Notes under the pieces: generated by a model
Databases searched by the model: none
What the model saw: the letters and a program-made list of their open reading frames with translations, nothing else
Told to the model about the DNA's origin: nothing
Made by a program: the position numbers and the translations under genes
Part shown: positions 33,555 through 41,361 of the stretch, one piece after another
Layout of the letters: every line of letters begins with the position of its first letter
Position numbering within the stretch: position 1 is the first letter of the stretch
Origin: Candidatus Heimdallarchaeota archaeon
Lineage (GTDB): Archaea > Asgardarchaeota > Heimdallarchaeia > Hodarchaeales > Hodarchaeaceae
NCBI GenBank assembly: GCA_020353515.1
Contig: CP070695.1
Location: forward strand, 2,674,155 to 2,738,154
Length of the DNA: 64,000 nt
Reading direction: 5' to 3'

Positions 33555-35333
33555 TCAAATCCTACGCACTTGTTTTAAAAATTCATGATAGGATAATTTG
33601 AAATAGATAGGGCGGCCGTGAGCACAAACACTAGAATCCTCAGCTTGAAGAAGTTCTTGAAGAAGATTCTTTGTTTGTTGAAATGATAACGTGTCTCCCG
33701 CACGATAGGATCCATGACAGGCTATTAAGTTTAAGATCGTTTTGATTTGCTCTTCAATAGCCGTTTTCGGGAGAGAATCAATTAATGATACCAAGAAATC
33801 TTTCAAATCGGATTTTATAAGAATACTTGGAATAGCGTAAACCTCAATCTCTTGTTTTTTCCCTTTAGGACTCCTAAAATCAAATCCCATAGCACTTAGA
33901 TAAGGAAGTGAGTCCATCAAAAGAATCTTTTGTTCTGGAGTAATAGAAAATCTGAAAGGTTTGAGAAAAGTTTGTGAACTCACTTTCCTTGTTTTGTACA
34001 TTTTTGTTAACTTTTCCAGATTTACTCGTTCATGTGCTGCATGAAAATCAAGAACAATAAGATCGTGGTTTGATGTATCCTCGAGAAGGAGGAATTCTTT
34101 TCCAAGAGGACCTCGATATATTAGATTAGATCCAAGAAAACTAATCATCTCTGGTCTTTCGTTAATGACCTCAAATTGGTCCTGGAGATGATTTGATAAT
34201 TCTAGGGGTTTGACTTCAGGTTGTAAATTTATTACCTGTTGTTTAATAGTTTTTTTCATGTCTGATTTTTCAAAAATTAAATTTGATTGTCTTTTTCTTT
34301 TAACGTGGGATGTCAGATGAGGGACAACAGCTTTTGTTTTGAGGCAATGATTTACAGTTGAAGTTATAGCTGTAGTCAGATCTTTTTCGTTATAGAAAAG
34401 GACTTCTCGTTTTTGAGGATGAATGTTTACATCGAAAAATATAGGATCAAGTTCAAGGAATAAAAATCCCGCAGGAAACTCTCGCTTCATTAGGTAAGAC
34501 CCATATCCCTCTTCTAAGGCTGTTTGTAGAATCTTGGAGAATATACGACGTCCATTAATGTAAAAATATTGATACTTCCTATTTCGTCTATGTTGGCCTT
34601 GCTTACTAAGATATCCATGAATTAATATGTCTTTACGTTGTATAATCCCAATGTCTATAAGGGATCCAGCTAAATCTTGACCAAGGGTTTCTTTGATCGC
34701 AGAAAGATGATTATCACTCTTTACAGTTTGAAATTCAATTTTTCCATCAATGACATATGTAAAGGAAATAATAGGATGACCTATAGCATATTGTGTAACC
34801 GTTTCATAGATATAAGATTGCTCAATAGAGGCTTTTTTCAGGAATTTTCGCCGCACGATGAAATTAAAAAATAGATCTTGAACTCGGACACGAGTTCCTG
34901 GAGAAGCCATTACTTCCTCTGAAATCTGAGGTTGATCCATGTCATTTTCAACGGAAATACGGGTAGCTAGCTCATTTTCAGCTGTTCTACTAACAATGGA
35001 GAATCTAGAGACTGACGCTATTGAATATAATGCTTCTCCCCGAAAACCCATGGTAGAAATCGATTCCAAATCCTTTTCGGAGCTAATTTTACTTGTAGCA
35101 TGCCGTTTTATAGTCAAGGGAATATCTTCTGGAAGGATTCCTGTCCCATTGTCTATTATCTCTATTAAATCCTTCCCACCGTTCTTAATTTCAATTCTAA
35201 TATCAGTAGCAGAGGCATCTATTGCATTTTCGATTAATTCCTTGACAACACTCGCAGGACGCTCAATAACCTCACCAGCAGCGATTTTGGAGACACAAAC
35301 TGGATCCAACATCTGAATTTTGGACACCATCAT
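33555..35333 (-). CDS. mutL: DNA mismatch repair endonuclease MutL
   Basis: IAAGEVIERPASVVKELIENAIDA, HATSKI, GFRGEAL, DFHAAHER, CAHGRP. Confidence 0.96.
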   Translation of the reverse strand: MMVSKIQMLDPVCVSKIAAGEVIERPASVVKELIENAIDASATDIRIEIKNGGKDLIEIIDNGTGILPEDIPLTIKRHATSKISSEKDLESISTMGFRGEALYSIASVSRFSIVSRTAENELATRISVENDMDQPQISEEVMASPGTRVRVQDLFFNFIVRRKFLKKASIEQSYIYETVTQYAIGHPIISFTYVIDGKIEFQTVKSDNHLSAIKETLGQDLAGSLIDIGIIQRKDILIHGYLSKQGQHRRNRKYQYFYINGRRIFSKILQTALEEGYGSYLMKREFPAGFLFLELDPIFFDVNIHPQKREVLFYNEKDLTTAITSTVNHCLKTKAVVPHLTSHVKRKRQSNLIFEKSDMKKTIKQQVINLQPEVKPLELSNHLQDQFEVINERPEMISFLGSNLIYRGPLGKEFLLLEDTSNHDLIVLDFHAAHERVNLEKLTKMYKTRKVSSQTFLKPFRFSITPEQKILLMDSLPYLSAMGFDFRSPKGKKQEIEVYAIPSILIKSDLKDFLVSLIDSLPKTAIEEQIKTILNLIACHGSYRAGDTLSFQQTKNLLQELLQAEDSSVCAHGRPIYFKLSYHEFLKQVRRI

Positions 35334-38074
35334 TTCTCCTCTATTTTCTTCTCTAATTCTCGCATATCGTTGACAATATCATCTAACTGCTGGAGTGCTT
35401 CTATTGGTGTTTTATAATTGATATCAATATCTGTGTAATTTTTTAAGAATGCTAGAATCTCAAATTTTAGATTTTTCACCTCTTCTTCAAATCGTTGTTG
35501 ATCAACGTTTTTTGAGAGAGCCTCAGCTAGAGACAATTGTCTAGGCTGAGTCCCTATTTTTTCTTTATGTTGAGGTGTTGTTGGAGAGTCAGATGTTGCT
35601 TCCAGCTCCAATAATTTCTTTTGAGCTTGAAGGATGACTTGTTTGGGAATTCCAGCCATTTTAGCTACGCTAATCCCAAATGAATGGTCAGTTGACCCCT
35701 CTTTAATTTTGTAAAGTAACACTAGCTTCCCATTTCGCACTTTAGCTGTTTGGTGATAATTTTTAACAACTGAATATTGATTTTCTAATTCGCTCAATTG
35801 GTGATAATGTGTGGCAAAAAGTGTCTTACTCTTCTTCTCTTTTGCAATATACTCTGCGATAGCCCATGCTAAGGATAAACCATCAAAAGTACTAGTTCCA
35901 CGTCCTACTTCGTCTAGAATTATCAAAGAATTTGGAGTAGAATTGTGAAGTATATGAGCAGTCTCAAGCATTTCAAGCATAAAAGTCGATTGTCCGAACG
36001 CGAGTCTATCGAACGCACCGACACGGGTGAAAATTTTATCTGTTATACCTAGCTGACAATTTTTTGCAGGCACCCATGACCCAGTTTGAGCCATTAACAC
36101 AATGAGAGCTGCTTGTCTGATAAAAACTGATTTTCCTGACATGTTGGGACCAGTTATGATATGAAGATCTCCATTCTTTAAGGAAATACTGTTAGGAACG
36201 AATCCTGTCTCTTTCTGCAGTTTTTCTACGACAGGATGACGACCATCAATGATAGAAATGATTGGTTCATTAATGAATTGAGGTTTACAGAAGTCATTTT
36301 TCATTGCTGTAAAGGTAAAACAAACCAATACATCTAATTCAGCGATTAATTCGGAATAGCTACGAATAATCCCTACTTTCTGAGAGATTTTTTCACGAAT
36401 TTCACAAAATAGTTGATATTCTAGCTCCTTAATTTTCTCATCAGCATTCAGGATTTTTTCTTCGATATTCTTTAGTTCAGGGGTAATAAAGCGTTCTGCA
36501 TTGACCAATGTTTGTCGTCTTACATATTCATGTGGAACAGCCTCTTCACCTGCGTCACGTAGCTGAGCCTTTGTAACTTCGATGTAATATCCATGAATTG
36601 AATTATATCCTAATTTAATGTTGAATGATGTCCTCTCTTGCTCCCGCTGTTCAATTTCATTCAATATTGAATCTTGATTTTTCTTTAATTCAAGCAACTG
36701 GAGTAAATCATCATTATAACTTGGTTTAATGATTTCCCCATCTCGGATTGATACTGGTGGAGATTCATGTATTCCGCTATCTATCAAACTGATAACATGT
36801 TTAAGATCTGAAACGTCAAAATTTAAGATTTTTTTGCAGATAGGACTAGTTAACTCACTTTTTTTGAAAAAAGCTAAGATTTCTAAACAAAAATTTAATG
36901 AATTTCTTAGAGAGATTAAATCTCTTGCATTTACTGAACGATACTTTATTTTAGCAACTAGCCTTTGAAAATCAGCAACATTGGAAAGTAAGTCACTAAT
37001 TTCTTCTATCAGGGCTAAATCCTGTTGAAAATCTTCTATTGCATTCAATCGGGCATTAATTTCGTTAGGATCGCGTAAAGGTTGCAATAACCACCTTCGA
37101 ATTAATCTAGCACCCATACTAGTATTGATATCAGTAAAAATGGATAATAAACTGCCTTCGATCTTTCCATCAAAAGCATTACTATTAATTTCAAGATTTC
37201 TTTGAGTATTAGAATCGAGTATTAAATGATTTCGATTATCTAGAGTTCGTAAAAACGATATATTACTTGGATAATCTTTTTTAAGCATTTTTAGATAGGA
37301 AATGATTGCCCCAGCGGCTTGTATTCCCTCAACCATAGAATCACAACCATAACCTGCCAGGGATCGAACTTCAAAATGATTCAGTAAGGTTTGAGCTGCC
37401 GTATCAAAATTGAAAAGAGTTTCATTTACAGGGTACACTACAGTCTGGGAGGTGGAGGTTATCATTTTTTCTATAGTATTTTGGAGTTTTCCTTTTTGTT
37501 GAATATCAGGAAAAATCACTTCTCGAGGATTAAAACGAGAGAATTCGTCCTGAAAATTATCAACAACATTTTCATTAAATTCTGTTACTAAAAACTCTCC
37601 AGTGGAGATATCAATAAACGATAAACCTATCGTTTGCTTTTTTTCATTAACCGTGAAACTTAAAAGAAAATTGTTTGTGTCTTTATCTAGTATCGATGTT
37701 TCAAAAACTGTTCCTGGTGTTACAACGCGTGTAACTCCTCTTTTTACAATTTTCCCTGACGGAACATCCTTAGCATCTTCTAATTGGTCTACAATCGCGA
37801 CTTTATAACCCTGATCTATCATTTTTTTTAAGTACGTATCTATTGCTTTGACAGGAACCCCTGCTAGAGGAATTCTCTCTCCACCTGCTCCCATTCCTCT
37901 TGAGGTCAGGGTAATATCGAGTGCTTTAGAGGCTATTTTTGCATCATCATTAAATGTTTCGTAAAAATCCCCTAACTGGAAAAACACAATAGTGTCTTCA
38001 TGATCCTTCTTAATACGATAATACTGTGCCATAGCTTTTGTTACTTTGCCTGATTTTCCACTCATTAGGGCCAT
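35330..38074 (-). CDS. mutS: DNA mismatch repair protein MutS (MutS1)
   Basis: GDFYETF, TGPNMSGKS, STFMLEM, DEVGRGTST, FATHYH. Confidence 0.97.
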   Translation of the reverse strand: MALMSGKSGKVTKAMAQYYRIKKDHEDTIVFFQLGDFYETFNDDAKIASKALDITLTSRGMGAGGERIPLAGVPVKAIDTYLKKMIDQGYKVAIVDQLEDAKDVPSGKIVKRGVTRVVTPGTVFETSILDKDTNNFLLSFTVNEKKQTIGLSFIDISTGEFLVTEFNENVVDNFQDEFSRFNPREVIFPDIQQKGKLQNTIEKMITSTSQTVVYPVNETLFNFDTAAQTLLNHFEVRSLAGYGCDSMVEGIQAAGAIISYLKMLKKDYPSNISFLRTLDNRNHLILDSNTQRNLEINSNAFDGKIEGSLLSIFTDINTSMGARLIRRWLLQPLRDPNEINARLNAIEDFQQDLALIEEISDLLSNVADFQRLVAKIKYRSVNARDLISLRNSLNFCLEILAFFKKSELTSPICKKILNFDVSDLKHVISLIDSGIHESPPVSIRDGEIIKPSYNDDLLQLLELKKNQDSILNEIEQREQERTSFNIKLGYNSIHGYYIEVTKAQLRDAGEEAVPHEYVRRQTLVNAERFITPELKNIEEKILNADEKIKELEYQLFCEIREKISQKVGIIRSYSELIAELDVLVCFTFTAMKNDFCKPQFINEPIISIIDGRHPVVEKLQKETGFVPNSISLKNGDLHIITGPNMSGKSVFIRQAALIVLMAQTGSWVPAKNCQLGITDKIFTRVGAFDRLAFGQSTFMLEMLETAHILHNSTPNSLIILDEVGRGTSTFDGLSLAWAIAEYIAKEKKSKTLFATHYHQLSELENQYSVVKNYHQTAKVRNGKLVLLYKIKEGSTDHSFGISVAKMAGIPKQVILQAQKKLLELEATSDSPTTPQHKEKIGTQPRQLSLAEALSKNVDQQRFEEEVKNLKFEILAFLKNYTDIDINYKTPIEALQQLDDIVNDMRELEKKIEEK

Positions 38075-38534: not shown

Positions 38535-38933
38535 TTCCTCACAGTATCATTATCAAACTTAAGGACATCTTGCCATTTCTATTTCTCCCTCTAACATGGG
38601 TGGGTGGCATTCATTGTTGGGGCTTTCTTCACAAACAAAGAATGAGTGGATTGAAGCAGAACTTTTTTCAATTCCCTTATTATCCCTATTTTTTTCTTTT
38701 TTATTTGATCACTTCAGAGATGATTCTAGTAATTTTCAAGATATCGGTAATTGTATCACAAAATAATTAAGTTAAAAGCAGAGTAGGCGTACCTTTGCAG
38801 GGTTACTAAAATAGCTCACAAGTATACCCACTCTCATCCAGAAAACAATTTGGAAATACTAGAACATCTATTTGGATTAAAGACCCTTATTAGGATGCCA
38901 AAGTACTTTTCAATAATACCTAGGTGACAATTA

Positions 38934-39803
38934 GTGGACATTGAAAATGCAATAGCAGAAATTCAAGAAAAATTTGGTGTCGTGGGACGAGACGCGTCAC
39001 TTCGTAAACTCATCCTGGGAAAGCAGGCCAGTAAGCATATCATCATTGAAGGACCAGTGGGTGTCGGAAAAACAACACTAGCTCATGCCGTTGCCGCATA
39101 CTTCGACCAGGGGTTTATACGGATTGATGGTGATGAACGCTATACTGAAAGCAAATTAGTTGGTCATTTTGAACCTCCTTTAGTAGTAGAAAAAGGTTGG
39201 ATTTGGGATGCTTTTGTTCCAGGTCCATTGACGTTAGCAATGAAAAATGGATCGATATTATTCATTAATGAAGCTAATCGATTAATAGAGGGAACTCAAA
39301 ACGTTTTACTGCCTTCTATGGATGAAGGATTACTTATTTTACCCAAACTTGGGGTTATTAAAGCTGCAGATGGTTTTCTCGTTGTTGCAACACAGAATCC
39401 AGAGTCATATATTGGTACCACAGTCCTTTCAGAAGCACTTAAAGATCGATTCGTCTGGATTAAACTAGAACATCAAGGATTCGAGGAGGAGGTCGATATT
39501 GTTGAGCAGAAAGCGGATATTGGACCAGAAGATCGGTTGATTTCTGAGACTGCTACAAAAATTACAAGAGCAACACGCAAACATCCCGATATTCGTCGTG
39601 GGTCATCAATTCGTGGAGCAATTGATCTTGCGAAAATTTTACACCTTGTAAAAAGCTTAAATCTAGAAACAGTTTCTGAAATGTCTATAATGACTCTTGC
39701 CACTAAAATTGAACTGGAAGATGGAGTCGAAAGACCAATCGAAGATGTCATACATGAAATTGTTGAAGCCATTCTTTCAGGGGACGAAGACCGTTTTTTA
39801 TAG
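38934..39803 (+). CDS. MoxR-type AAA+ ATPase
   Basis: EGPVGVGKTT, GPLTLAM, LFINEANR, VATQNP, LSEALKDRF, GSSIRGAI. Confidence 0.92.
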   Translation: MDIENAIAEIQEKFGVVGRDASLRKLILGKQASKHIIIEGPVGVGKTTLAHAVAAYFDQGFIRIDGDERYTESKLVGHFEPPLVVEKGWIWDAFVPGPLTLAMKNGSILFINEANRLIEGTQNVLLPSMDEGLLILPKLGVIKAADGFLVVATQNPESYIGTTVLSEALKDRFVWIKLEHQGFEEEVDIVEQKADIGPEDRLISETATKITRATRKHPDIRRGSSIRGAIDLAKILHLVKSLNLETVSEMSIMTLATKIELEDGVERPIEDVIHEIVEAILSGDEDRFL

Positions 39804-39828
39804 ATAAATCCCGAGAGTTTGCTCGGGA
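39794..39828 (+). promoter_or_regulatory. Putative -1 programmed ribosomal frameshift signal
   Basis: T TTT TTA (39794-39800) on the last codons of the AAA ORF, 8-nt spacer, stem TCCCGAG/CTCGGGA (39809-39828); the -1 frame is the vWA ORF. Confidence 0.75.
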
Positions 39829-39859
39829 GTACAACAAGAACATTCGTCTGTTCGGCAGA

Positions 39860-40870
39860 TTGAAACTGGAAGATCTCGCAGAAGCAGCTATTGCTGCAGG
39901 AGATACACTTCCAAAGCTGGATAAATTAGACTTAGCAAGCATAGAGCGGTTAACTGAATCAGCGATTGAACATGAGAATCTTCCTGCCTTAATGTCTTTA
40001 GCTAAAATTAACAAATATGCTGTTTCCAACACATTAAATACTGATAGAATAGTTTCTTTAGGTCGAGTGGCTGGATCTGGGGGGGTTTATACACCTCGGC
40101 TTTATTTTGTTATGAGAGGTGTCCTTGATATCAAACGGAGAGCAATCCTGAAACGTTTAACTCGTACATCAATCTTGAAATTATCTCTCAGAATTGCTTC
40201 CGAAGGATTACGAGGAGATTTACCTGTCCGAGGAGAATACCAACCTGAAAGTGATTTTGATTTAGACGCGACGATGGACCAGTTATTAGAGAGGTATCCG
40301 ACAGGTATTCCAACCTTGAAGAGAAGTGATATCATTGGGATCGAGAGACGAGAACGGAAAAAAAATGGGGTACTCATCCTAGATGCTAGTGGTTCGATGA
40401 TGGGGGAACGGAATATTAACGCGGCGTTATCTGCCGCGGTAATGGCCTATTCAATGCGACACGATAAATTTGGAGTCATTGCATTCAATACTAAGGCATT
40501 TTTGATCAAAGGAATCAAAGATGAGCTCACTATCCAAGATATCATGGATAGAATACTCGATTTAGAAGCAGTAGGATACACCAACATTGAAGATGCCCTA
40601 AGAGAAGGGGCATTACAATTGAAGGGGCTAAAAACACGATTTAAATGGGCAATTTTGTTAACAGATGGCGCTTATAATAAGGGAGATGACCCACGCTACC
40701 TTTGCAAGAAGTTTGAGAAATTACACGTGCTGAATTTACCAGGAGGTAAAAAATGGGGAGAACGTGTCTGTAAAGACTTAGCTCGCCTTGGTGGTGGGCG
40801 CTATGTGGTCGTTAGAAGTTATCATGAAGTTCCCAGAGCCCTTATGAAGATTCTCAGGGCTCCTTGGTAG
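39860..40870 (+). CDS. vWA-domain protein (frame open from 39767; probably the C-terminal part of a frameshift fusion)
   Basis: ILDASGSM MIDAS, GYTNIEDAL, LLTDG; the annotated start is TTG with no upstream in-frame ATG. Confidence 0.88.
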   Translation: MKLEDLAEAAIAAGDTLPKLDKLDLASIERLTESAIEHENLPALMSLAKINKYAVSNTLNTDRIVSLGRVAGSGGVYTPRLYFVMRGVLDIKRRAILKRLTRTSILKLSLRIASEGLRGDLPVRGEYQPESDFDLDATMDQLLERYPTGIPTLKRSDIIGIERRERKKNGVLILDASGSMMGERNINAALSAAVMAYSMRHDKFGVIAFNTKAFLIKGIKDELTIQDIMDRILDLEAVGYTNIEDALREGALQLKGLKTRFKWAILLTDGAYNKGDDPRYLCKKFEKLHVLNLPGGKKWGERVCKDLARLGGGRYVVVRSYHEVPRALMKILRAPW

Positions 40871-41361
40871 AAATTAAATCTTCGTTTTCCACTGAAAGTA
40901 TATTGGGATTATTTGTGAATATCGGGATAGAGAAAGCTGGAGTTCAAGCATGGTTTGTTTATCGACGTATAGATAGAATAATTCTCTATTCTCGTATTTA
41001 TTCTGCGCTAGCAGGCGACATAACACCAGAAAAAGCTGTTGCTTTCAGCGAAATTTCAACAACACTTCTTCATCAGATAAAAAGTCATTATCCTTGGATA
41101 CAGGCTGAAAAATTGCATAATATCGAACTTGACACCCATGAAATCCGAACTCTTTACGGAAAATTCGTTATGCTGGTTCTCATCGCACGACGGGGAAAAT
41201 CGGTTAAAAAAGTCTATCAGTTACACGAAAAAATGCTTTCAATTATAGAAACAGATGCGGAAGGACGTTTGGCTTCTCAAGTTCATGAACCAGAAATTCT
41301 CAGCGATATTTGGGTAAAATGCGAAGAATTATTACGTCCTTACATCATTCATTTATTCTAG
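40864..41361 (+). CDS. Longin-like small domain protein
   Basis: beta-beta-alpha-beta-beta-beta-alpha pattern: WFVYRR..IILYSRIY...LHNIELDTHEIRTLYGKFVMLVLIA...KMLSIIE. Confidence 0.45.
   Translation: MVEIKSSFSTESILGLFVNIGIEKAGVQAWFVYRRIDRIILYSRIYSALAGDITPEKAVAFSEISTTLLHQIKSHYPWIQAEKLHNIELDTHEIRTLYGKFVMLVLIARRGKSVKKVYQLHEKMLSIIETDAEGRLASQVHEPEILSDIWVKCEELLRPYIIHLF

Follow-up and report, generated by a model that had tools for sequence, protein, structure and literature searches.

A candidate −1 programmed frameshift joining a MoxR-class ATPase and a vWA protein in an Asgard archaeon

Question and layout of the locus

How is a von Willebrand factor type A (vWA) protein translated when its reading frame lacks a dependable start codon and overlaps the end of the gene ahead of it? 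This question is raised by a locus on contig CP070695.1 of a Candidatus Heimdallarchaeota archaeon (assembly GCA_020353515.1), a Hodarchaeales-type Asgard archaeon whose genome is a single contig of 4.94 Mb. The window, i.e., the whole stretch of 64,000 nucleotides that was analysed, contains an open reading frame (ORF) for a MoxR-class AAA+ ATPase and, directly after it, one for a vWA protein. The two frames are probably joined by a −1 programmed ribosomal frameshift (PRF), which would make the locus a candidate recoded gene. This reading draws on sequence features at the junction, their conservation, coding constraint in the −1 frame ahead of any start codon, and fused orthologs. The features, in window coordinates, are as follows; MIDAS stands for metal ion-dependent adhesion site.

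38922..38927, + strand: Shine-Dalgarno-like AGGTGA, 6 nt 5′ of the GTG that starts the AAA ORF, identified by inspection of the sequence and of putative function
38934..39803, + strand: zero-frame AAA ORF with GTG start, 289 aa, the predicted short product (Pfam AAA_5, 4.8e-18)
39051-39074, + strand: Walker A motif GPVGVGKT within the AAA ORF
39767..39799, + strand: overlap, in which the −1 frame is already open within the tail of the AAA ORF
39794..39800, + strand: slippery heptamer T_TTT_TTA (U_UUU_UUA in RNA) in X_XXY_YYZ phase, zero-frame codons TTT TTA
39801..39803, + strand: zero-frame stop TAG, which adjoins the heptamer and ends the short product
39809..39828, + strand: candidate frameshift stimulator, a 7-bp stem with a 6-nt loop, TCCCGAG/AGTTTG/CTCGGGA
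39800..40870, + strand: −1 frame part of the predicted long product, 356 codons and a stop
39860..39862, + strand: TTG, the earliest canonical start (ATG/GTG/TTG) of the vWA frame, not conserved
40382..40399, + strand: MIDAS motif D-A-S-G-S-M of the vWA domain, with D206, S208, and S210 invariant in 41 homologs

The AAA ORF ends in CGT TTT TTA TAG, which includes a T6 run at 39794-39799, and the heptamer is separated from the hairpin by a spacer of 8 nt (39801-39808). The vWA frame, which is −1 relative to the AAA ORF, is open from 39767 to 40870 and has its first ATG at 39992. Its −1 part encodes, in this order, a variable linker, a conserved N-I-R-L-F-G-R motif, a helical domain, and the vWA domain. 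The original prediction had pointed out the ORF end, heptamer, spacer, hairpin, −1 vWA frame, and TTG 39860, and all of these coordinates were confirmed.

According to the single sequence, these features alone are not beyond chance. The heptamer is not enriched in the window (TTTTTTA occurs 79 times versus 64 ± 8 expected), and the downstream 60 nt fold with −16.5 kcal/mol (z = −2.4), a value that 3 of 200 shuffles equal. The argument must therefore be comparative, and the significance of the features comes from cross-genome conservation. Rfam reports nothing relevant across 39600-40000.

If the frameshift takes place, one mRNA would carry both the AAA+ ORF and the vWA frame with no dependable start codon. 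Most ribosomes would stop at TAG 39801 and release a MoxR-class ATPase of 289 aa. A fraction would slip back by 1 base with tRNA-Phe and tRNA-Leu on UUU UUA (39795-39800), while the hairpin 8 nt downstream pauses the ribosome. Having slipped, with whatever efficiency the site may allow, these ribosomes would read the −1 frame from AUA 39800 to 40870 and yield an AAA-linker-vWA protein with a predicted length of 645 aa (289 + 356). By analogy with NorQ-NorD, CbbQ-CbbO, and frameshifted chlD, the long form may co-assemble with the short one, and the ring would thereby gain a tethered MIDAS adaptor in a ratio set by frameshift efficiency.

Conservation of the junction in the genus

Orthologous loci from 20 further genus genomes were compared; the junction is contained in 19 loci, the window’s included. 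CGT TTT TTA is invariant in all 19, and in all 19 the vWA frame lies at −1, with protein identity down to 84-85%. The zero-frame stop directly follows the heptamer in 17 of these loci and comes one codon later in the remaining two (L015 and L016).

In a codon alignment of both genes (1937 nt, 17 genomes), mean pairwise identity equals 0.90-0.92 at codon positions 1 and 2 versus 0.48-0.49 at position 3, and both ORFs are therefore under purifying selection. Third-position identity in sliding windows of 7 codons has a mean of 0.486 (standard deviation 0.080) and reaches its maximum of 0.861 in the window centred on 39802; the nine highest values all fall within 39788-39817. Thus, the heptamer and hairpin form the only strong synonymous-site constraint across the two genes.

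The hairpin at 39809..39828 has 98.4% of cells paired among 18 sequences. Five of its pairs are invariant; at the pair 39814/39823, 14 sequences have AU, and GU and GC occur twice each. No synonymous variation is seen in the stem codons Ser TCC, Arg CGR, and Arg CGG, in contrast to the freely varying Arg, Leu, and Gly codons immediately past the stem. The structure, whose spacing is within the range of 5-9 nt past the heptamer, appears to be conserved beyond coding need.

As a separate observation, RNAalifold reports an outer helix in which 39793-39798 (GUUUUU of the slip site) pairs with 39836-39841 (AARAAY) in 18 of 18 sequences; its pairs change between GC and GU and between UA and UG. This helix may either result by chance from the U-run and the Lys/Asn codons or sequester the slip site.

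Translation ahead of the first start codon

The ten codons at 39830-39859 (Y-N-K-N-I-R-L-F-G-R), which precede TTG 39860, show an average identity of 0.88 at position 1, 0.99 at position 2, and 0.46 at position 3, and the changes at position 1 are synonymous (CGN/AGR and CTN/TTR). This stretch evolves as protein-coding sequence in the −1 frame. The earliest canonical start of the vWA frame, in contrast, wanders: depending on the species, its distance from the stop is −1, +14, +59, +62, +65, +125, +188, or +191. The TTG at 39860 is replaced in relatives by TTA, CTC, CTA, CTT, or ATG, and it is TTA in a genome with a 97% identical vWA protein. Within the order, only 3 of 21 loci have a start ahead of the conserved RLFGR motif. 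There is no start until +191 in L003, L007, and L011, and none within 900 nt in L127. TTG 39860 is thus unlikely to be the sole start. Given the coding constraint at 39830-39859 and the wandering first start, translation must therefore enter the stretch from upstream. In short, the downstream ORF lies at −1, is open across the site, and is coding ahead of any start, with no conserved initiator.

Fused relatives and paralogous pairs

A search among longer proteins revealed in-frame fused homologs of the predicted trans-frame product, namely, P0085 (647 aa, present in two NCBI assemblies) and P0086-88 (651-655 aa). P0085 aligns to the AAA ORF without gaps from residue 5 to 288 with 61% identity, then continues in frame via an acidic linker into ...VRLFGR... 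and a vWA part that is 68% identical. For P0085-P0088 overall the identity of the vWA part is 64-68%. The DNA of P0085 has neither a T-run nor a stop at the joint. Since the fusion in these orthologs is in frame and collinear, the fused polypeptide is a functional form in the orthologous group.

The original prediction had proposed to look among orthologs for the heptamer and −1 overlap, for hairpin covariation, and for in-frame fused homologs. Conservation of the former two is borne out throughout the genus, and the fused homologs turned out to be collinear with both ORFs. As for the hairpin, its synonymous sites are kept and one compensatory pair is seen in the genus, with other stems at this place in other families.

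Two further AAA_5-vWA pairs (34-35% identity) are encoded in the same genome outside the window. Both carry −1 cassettes:

L080:1122-1154 (G000:C1:1766500-1769300): paralog pair 1, ATPase end TCA AAA AAA TTC TAG, with A_AAA_AAA
L079:1164-1176 (G000:C1:2930000-2933000): paralog pair 2, ATPase end AGA AAA AAA AAA TAG (A10 and TAG), vWA at −1

In pair 1, the site is followed after 6 nt by the hairpin GGCGGGA/CAAGGA/TCCCGCC with a 7-bp GC stem. The junction keeps its −1 relation, a run of A6-A13, and a covarying hairpin of the GCGGGAC type in 20 of 20 genus genomes, among which the earliest vWA-frame start ranges from −67 to +572. Orthologs of pair 2 are fused in frame in 3 genus genomes, with open frames of 599-624 aa. 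All 3 MoxR-vWA pairs thus have such a junction with different slip sequences, which therefore argues for a shared expression strategy and not an accident.

Distribution in the class and phylum

Within the class, the ortholog is single-copy in 77 of 83 genomes and the −1 overlap occurs in 64 of 75 junctions. T_TTT_TTA is found in families f1 and f2; in f3 (all 27 loci) and f5 (9 of 12 loci), T_TTT is followed by TTC, TTA, or TTT. Among 60 unique class junctions, the 22 codons past the site contain no stops in the −1 frame versus 106 in the +1 frame. Family f4 differs in all 11 of its loci, where the vWA frame lies at +1 and has an ATG of its own 10-13 nt past the stop.

Beyond the class, the ortholog is found in 247 of 400 Asgard genomes. 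A sample taken from 13 further Asgard families comprises 34 junctions, of which 33 are −1. T_TTY immediately precedes the stop in 31; the sole junction that is not −1 belongs to f32 (+1 with its own ATG). The separate-gene loci (L023, L024, L026, L030, L050, L058, L067-L069, L071, and L072 in f4, and L126 in f32) have an ATPase C-terminal end of the form K-F-F-R-x-x and would be useful natural controls.

Stems at the same place, but unrelated in sequence, occur in f2, f5, f11, f13, f26, f28, and f29. The f5 consensus stem has compensatory changes in 6 of 8 pairs, and L020 has a 9-bp GC-rich stem at the same distance from the site. In f11, f13, f26, f28, and f29 the stems abut a conserved GATGA (Asp-Asp codons), and the arms differ between families (GGAGGA/TCCTCC, GGGAATTC/GAATTCCC, GGAGAT/ATCTCC, and GAGGACATTT/AGATGTCCTT). 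For these short purine-rich stems, which come from a GATGA-anchored helix search, single-sequence p-values are modest, and only position and between-family arm turnover count.

Two side observations concern copies elsewhere. An f28 genome with 11% contamination contains a second copy (G308:C119:1330-2427) that is 92% identical to the window’s vWA protein and most likely represents a contaminating contig from the window’s genus. In 2 Actinomycetota loci (L146:1430-1503 and L147:1430-1503; P0080/P0081, 31% identity) the vWA frame likewise lies at −1; a GTG of its own is located 27 nt past the stop, and there is no T-run. L146 has a G_GGA_AAA heptamer 34 nt ahead of the stop (its phase was checked in L146), and the same letters are present in L147.

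Alternative explanations

The two ORFs might be separate genes, in which case translation of the vWA protein would begin at TTG 39860 or, after termination, reinitiate at a near-cognate codon, e.g., AUA 39800, which overlaps the stop; the roles of the hairpin and T-run would then lie in coupling, in mRNA stability, or in partial termination of transcription at oligo-T. Truly separate genes do exist in f4 (11 of 11) and f32, with ATG 10-13 nt past the stop, L012 and L020 have ATG overlapping TGA, and in many families the G-R-M position, at the start of the folded domain, has retained an ATG. Separate-gene families, however, use the +1 frame and a real ATG, and all loci with no such ATG are −1. 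Start at TTG 39860 is also contradicted by its replacement with TTA, CTC, CTA, or CTT even at 97% protein identity, by the late or missing starts in L003, L007, L011, and L127, by −1 coding constraint ahead of it, and by the lack of a Shine-Dalgarno-like motif ahead of 39860. L015 and L016 keep the heptamer with no AUA codon, and the fused orthologs speak against separate genes as well, which leaves this explanation improbable. Oligo-T is a signal for transcription termination in archaea. The T6 run at 39794-39799 is also a plausible signal of this kind, and some transcripts may end between the two ORFs. It could act as a leaky terminator, which would leave the conservation of the frame unexplained.

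Transcriptional slippage, in which RNA polymerase adds one U within T6 and part of the mRNAs encode an in-frame fusion, would yield the same product. It is plausible for the A10-A13 runs of the paralogous pairs, present in one pair and in several orthologs of the other, lengths for which polymerase slippage is known (PMC3711429). At the window’s junction, however, it is very unlikely: T6 falls short of the runs reported to slip efficiently (>8 for T and >7 for A, cited in PMC3711429), it always comprises exactly six T in heptamer phase, the 3′ hairpin has canonical ribosomal spacing, and some other families have only T4, where polymerase slippage is impossible. Homopolymer runs are error-prone and fused relatives exist, which would be in line with a sequencing or assembly error, or with a gene that was once fused and has recently been inactivated by a frameshift. 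This is barely credible, given T6 and the same frame relation in 19 independent genus assemblies, the −1 relation in about 97 loci of the phylum, and the purifying selection on both ORFs.

Several results nevertheless weigh against a −1 frameshift or limit its reach. Stem covariation in the genus amounts to one pair in two lineages, the shuffle control is weak (19 of 500), and conservation of the stem may partly reflect protein constraint on the S-R...R-E codons. In f3 (27 loci) the heptamer is kept, but no consensus structure was found. The ATG that many families keep at the G-R-M position stands where the well-folded part begins, and a free vWA protein could arise from the G-R-M/L codon via internal initiation, possibly in addition to the fusion. 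Degenerate sites, i.e., T_TTT and another, non-slippery codon, occur in 3 f5 loci, f6, and f7, and where the stop is TGA, an overlapping TTG (TTGA) would allow coupling. Outside f1-f3 and f5, the signal would need P-site slippage and is weaker. Because of these degenerate sites and TTG-TGA overlaps, confidence there is lower than in the window’s genus.

A broader claim would be that the −1 shift is an ancient, phylum-wide mode of MoxR-vWA expression in Asgard archaea, covering at least 18 families and three paralogous pairs, in which even minimal U_UUU P-site slips before the stop suffice and the efficiency sets the number of MIDAS adaptors per AAA+ hexamer. We regard this as doubtful. If true, such a mode would be the split-gene counterpart of the single chain of midasin with its six AAA modules and one MIDAS.

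Identity of the two proteins

Regarding the ATPase, Pfam reports AAA_5 with 4.8e-18 and 66 bits (cut-off 22) and AAA_3 with 1.7e-13 and 51 bits (cut-off 27). By sequence, it is a MoxR-class AAA+ protein (AAA_5/AAA_3; NorQ/CbbQ/GvpN-like) with a single module and Walker A. Its best single-domain PDB matches are NorQ (7.8e-11) and CbbQ, in the range of 1e-9 to 1e-11. It does not qualify as an equivalog of GvpN, NorQ, or CbbQ, with a TIGR02640 (GvpN) score of 86 bits versus a cut-off of 267 and NorQ/CbbQ matches in the range given.

The vWA protein scores 34 bits for VWA_2 and 27 bits for VWA_CoxE, both over the cut-offs, and its DASGS is invariant. An AlphaFold model of the vWA frame, built on a 41-sequence alignment, has a pLDDT (predicted local distance difference test) of 80.7. 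Residues 1-30, which form the trans-frame linker, are disordered (pLDDT <50) and are followed by the helical domain and the vWA fold. Among fold matches, the vWA domain of NorD in NorQD complexes ranks first (Foldseek E 3e-9 to 4e-7), followed by BatB and the Rea1 MIDAS domain. With its DxSxS motif and position directly after the ATPase, the protein has the attributes of a vWA/MIDAS adaptor of the NorD/CbbO/CoxE type. Thus, the locus is a NorQ/NorD-like MoxR system, not a chelatase.

Two other assignments were considered and rejected. The chelatase models score far below their cut-offs (18.7 versus 467 for TIGR02030, 27.4 versus 500 for TIGR02031, and 27-29 versus 779 bits for TIGR02442), and CobN/ChlH (PF02514) was not found in the source genome G000, which is 96% complete, with matches in 5 of 14 control genomes. 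As for midasin, its whole-chain match of 7.8e-34 adds up six domains that score only 6-32 bits apiece, and NorQ is closer per domain with 45 bits. Midasin is therefore not the specific closest relative according to per-domain scores.

Relation to known systems

The closest parallel in expression is frameshifted chlD, where a single gene encodes both a short AAA+ subunit and an AAA+-vWA subunit through a −1 shift at poly-A, whose efficiency in reporters is 10-63% (PMC3711429, PMC9227772). The likeness includes a short AAA+ subunit from standard decoding, an AAA+-linker-vWA protein from a −1 shift at an A/T-rich site with downstream structure, in-frame fused relatives, annotation as two adjacent genes, and some archaeal members (Methanocaldococcus) (Antonov et al. 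2013, PMC3711429; PMC9227772). The AAA+ family, however, is different (ChlI/ChlD models give 19-27 bits here versus cut-offs of 467-500), the site is U_UUU_UUA and not poly-A, and chlD frameshifting was measured in Escherichia coli reporters, whereas this locus is known from sequence. The comparison with chlD made in the original prediction is thus correct as an analogy (PMC3711429, PMC9227772), but does not extend to function, since neither the profile scores nor the lack of CobN/ChlH fits a chelatase.

NorQ-NorD and CbbQ-CbbO likewise combine a MoxR-class AAA+ hexamer with a single vWA/MIDAS adaptor, in the gene order AAA then vWA. In contrast to the fusion predicted here, the partners are separate polypeptides from separate genes, and a literature search found no recoding described for them; identity is low (16-19% for the vWA domain). 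Eukaryotic midasin (Rea1/Mdn1) resembles the predicted long product in having AAA_5-type ATPase modules, an acidic linker, and a C-terminal MIDAS domain, and its ratio of six AAA modules to one MIDAS is a stoichiometry that a mixed ring of short and long forms could imitate, although per-domain scores indicate no specific relationship.

With the classical cases of −1 PRF (HIV-1 gag-pol with U_UUU_UUA and a stem-loop, E. coli dnaX, and Saccharolobus solfataricus fucA1) the locus shares a heptamer, a 5-9 nt spacer, a 3′ stem-loop, and two products, here predicted ones, with a common N-terminus, although the genes are unrelated. The fucA1 case indicates that archaeal ribosomes are capable of −1 PRF (PMC8211752, PMC1616953). 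According to a 2021 review of archaeal recoding, it is the only demonstrated cellular −1 PRF in Archaea, and the chelatase cases are predicted (PMC8211752). fucA1 frameshifting is confined to a few strains, whereas the site described here is conserved across the phylum. A literature search on Asgard, MoxR, vWA, and AAA+ in combination with frameshifting found no description of this family. The locus would thus represent a −1 PRF cassette of the classical type that follows the logic of chlD, but in a protein family and lineage that are new for it.

A site with the HIV-1 heptamer that is conserved throughout Asgard archaea, which are the prokaryotes closest to eukaryotes, would offer a natural system for studying recoding on these ribosomes. 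Recoding would also mean that hundreds of genes listed as “vWA domain-containing protein” but lacking a start need a corrected annotation, and it suggests a general rule by which the ratio of AAA+ to vWA adaptor in MoxR machines may be set during translation, as proposed for chlD.

Neighboring genes

The genes around the locus, with MutS and MutL on its upstream side and GDPD downstream, on the other strand, offer no functional hint. Directly upstream, at 33555-38074 of the opposite (−) strand, the window encodes a bacterial-type MutL (592 aa) and a MutS (914 aa) with all five MutS domains. Downstream, an ORF of 165 aa with a TTG start (40864-41361, + strand) overlaps the vWA stop by 7 nt and may be a third gene of the operon; it has a weak, sub-threshold match to Zincin_1 (17.9 bits, cut-off 22.4).

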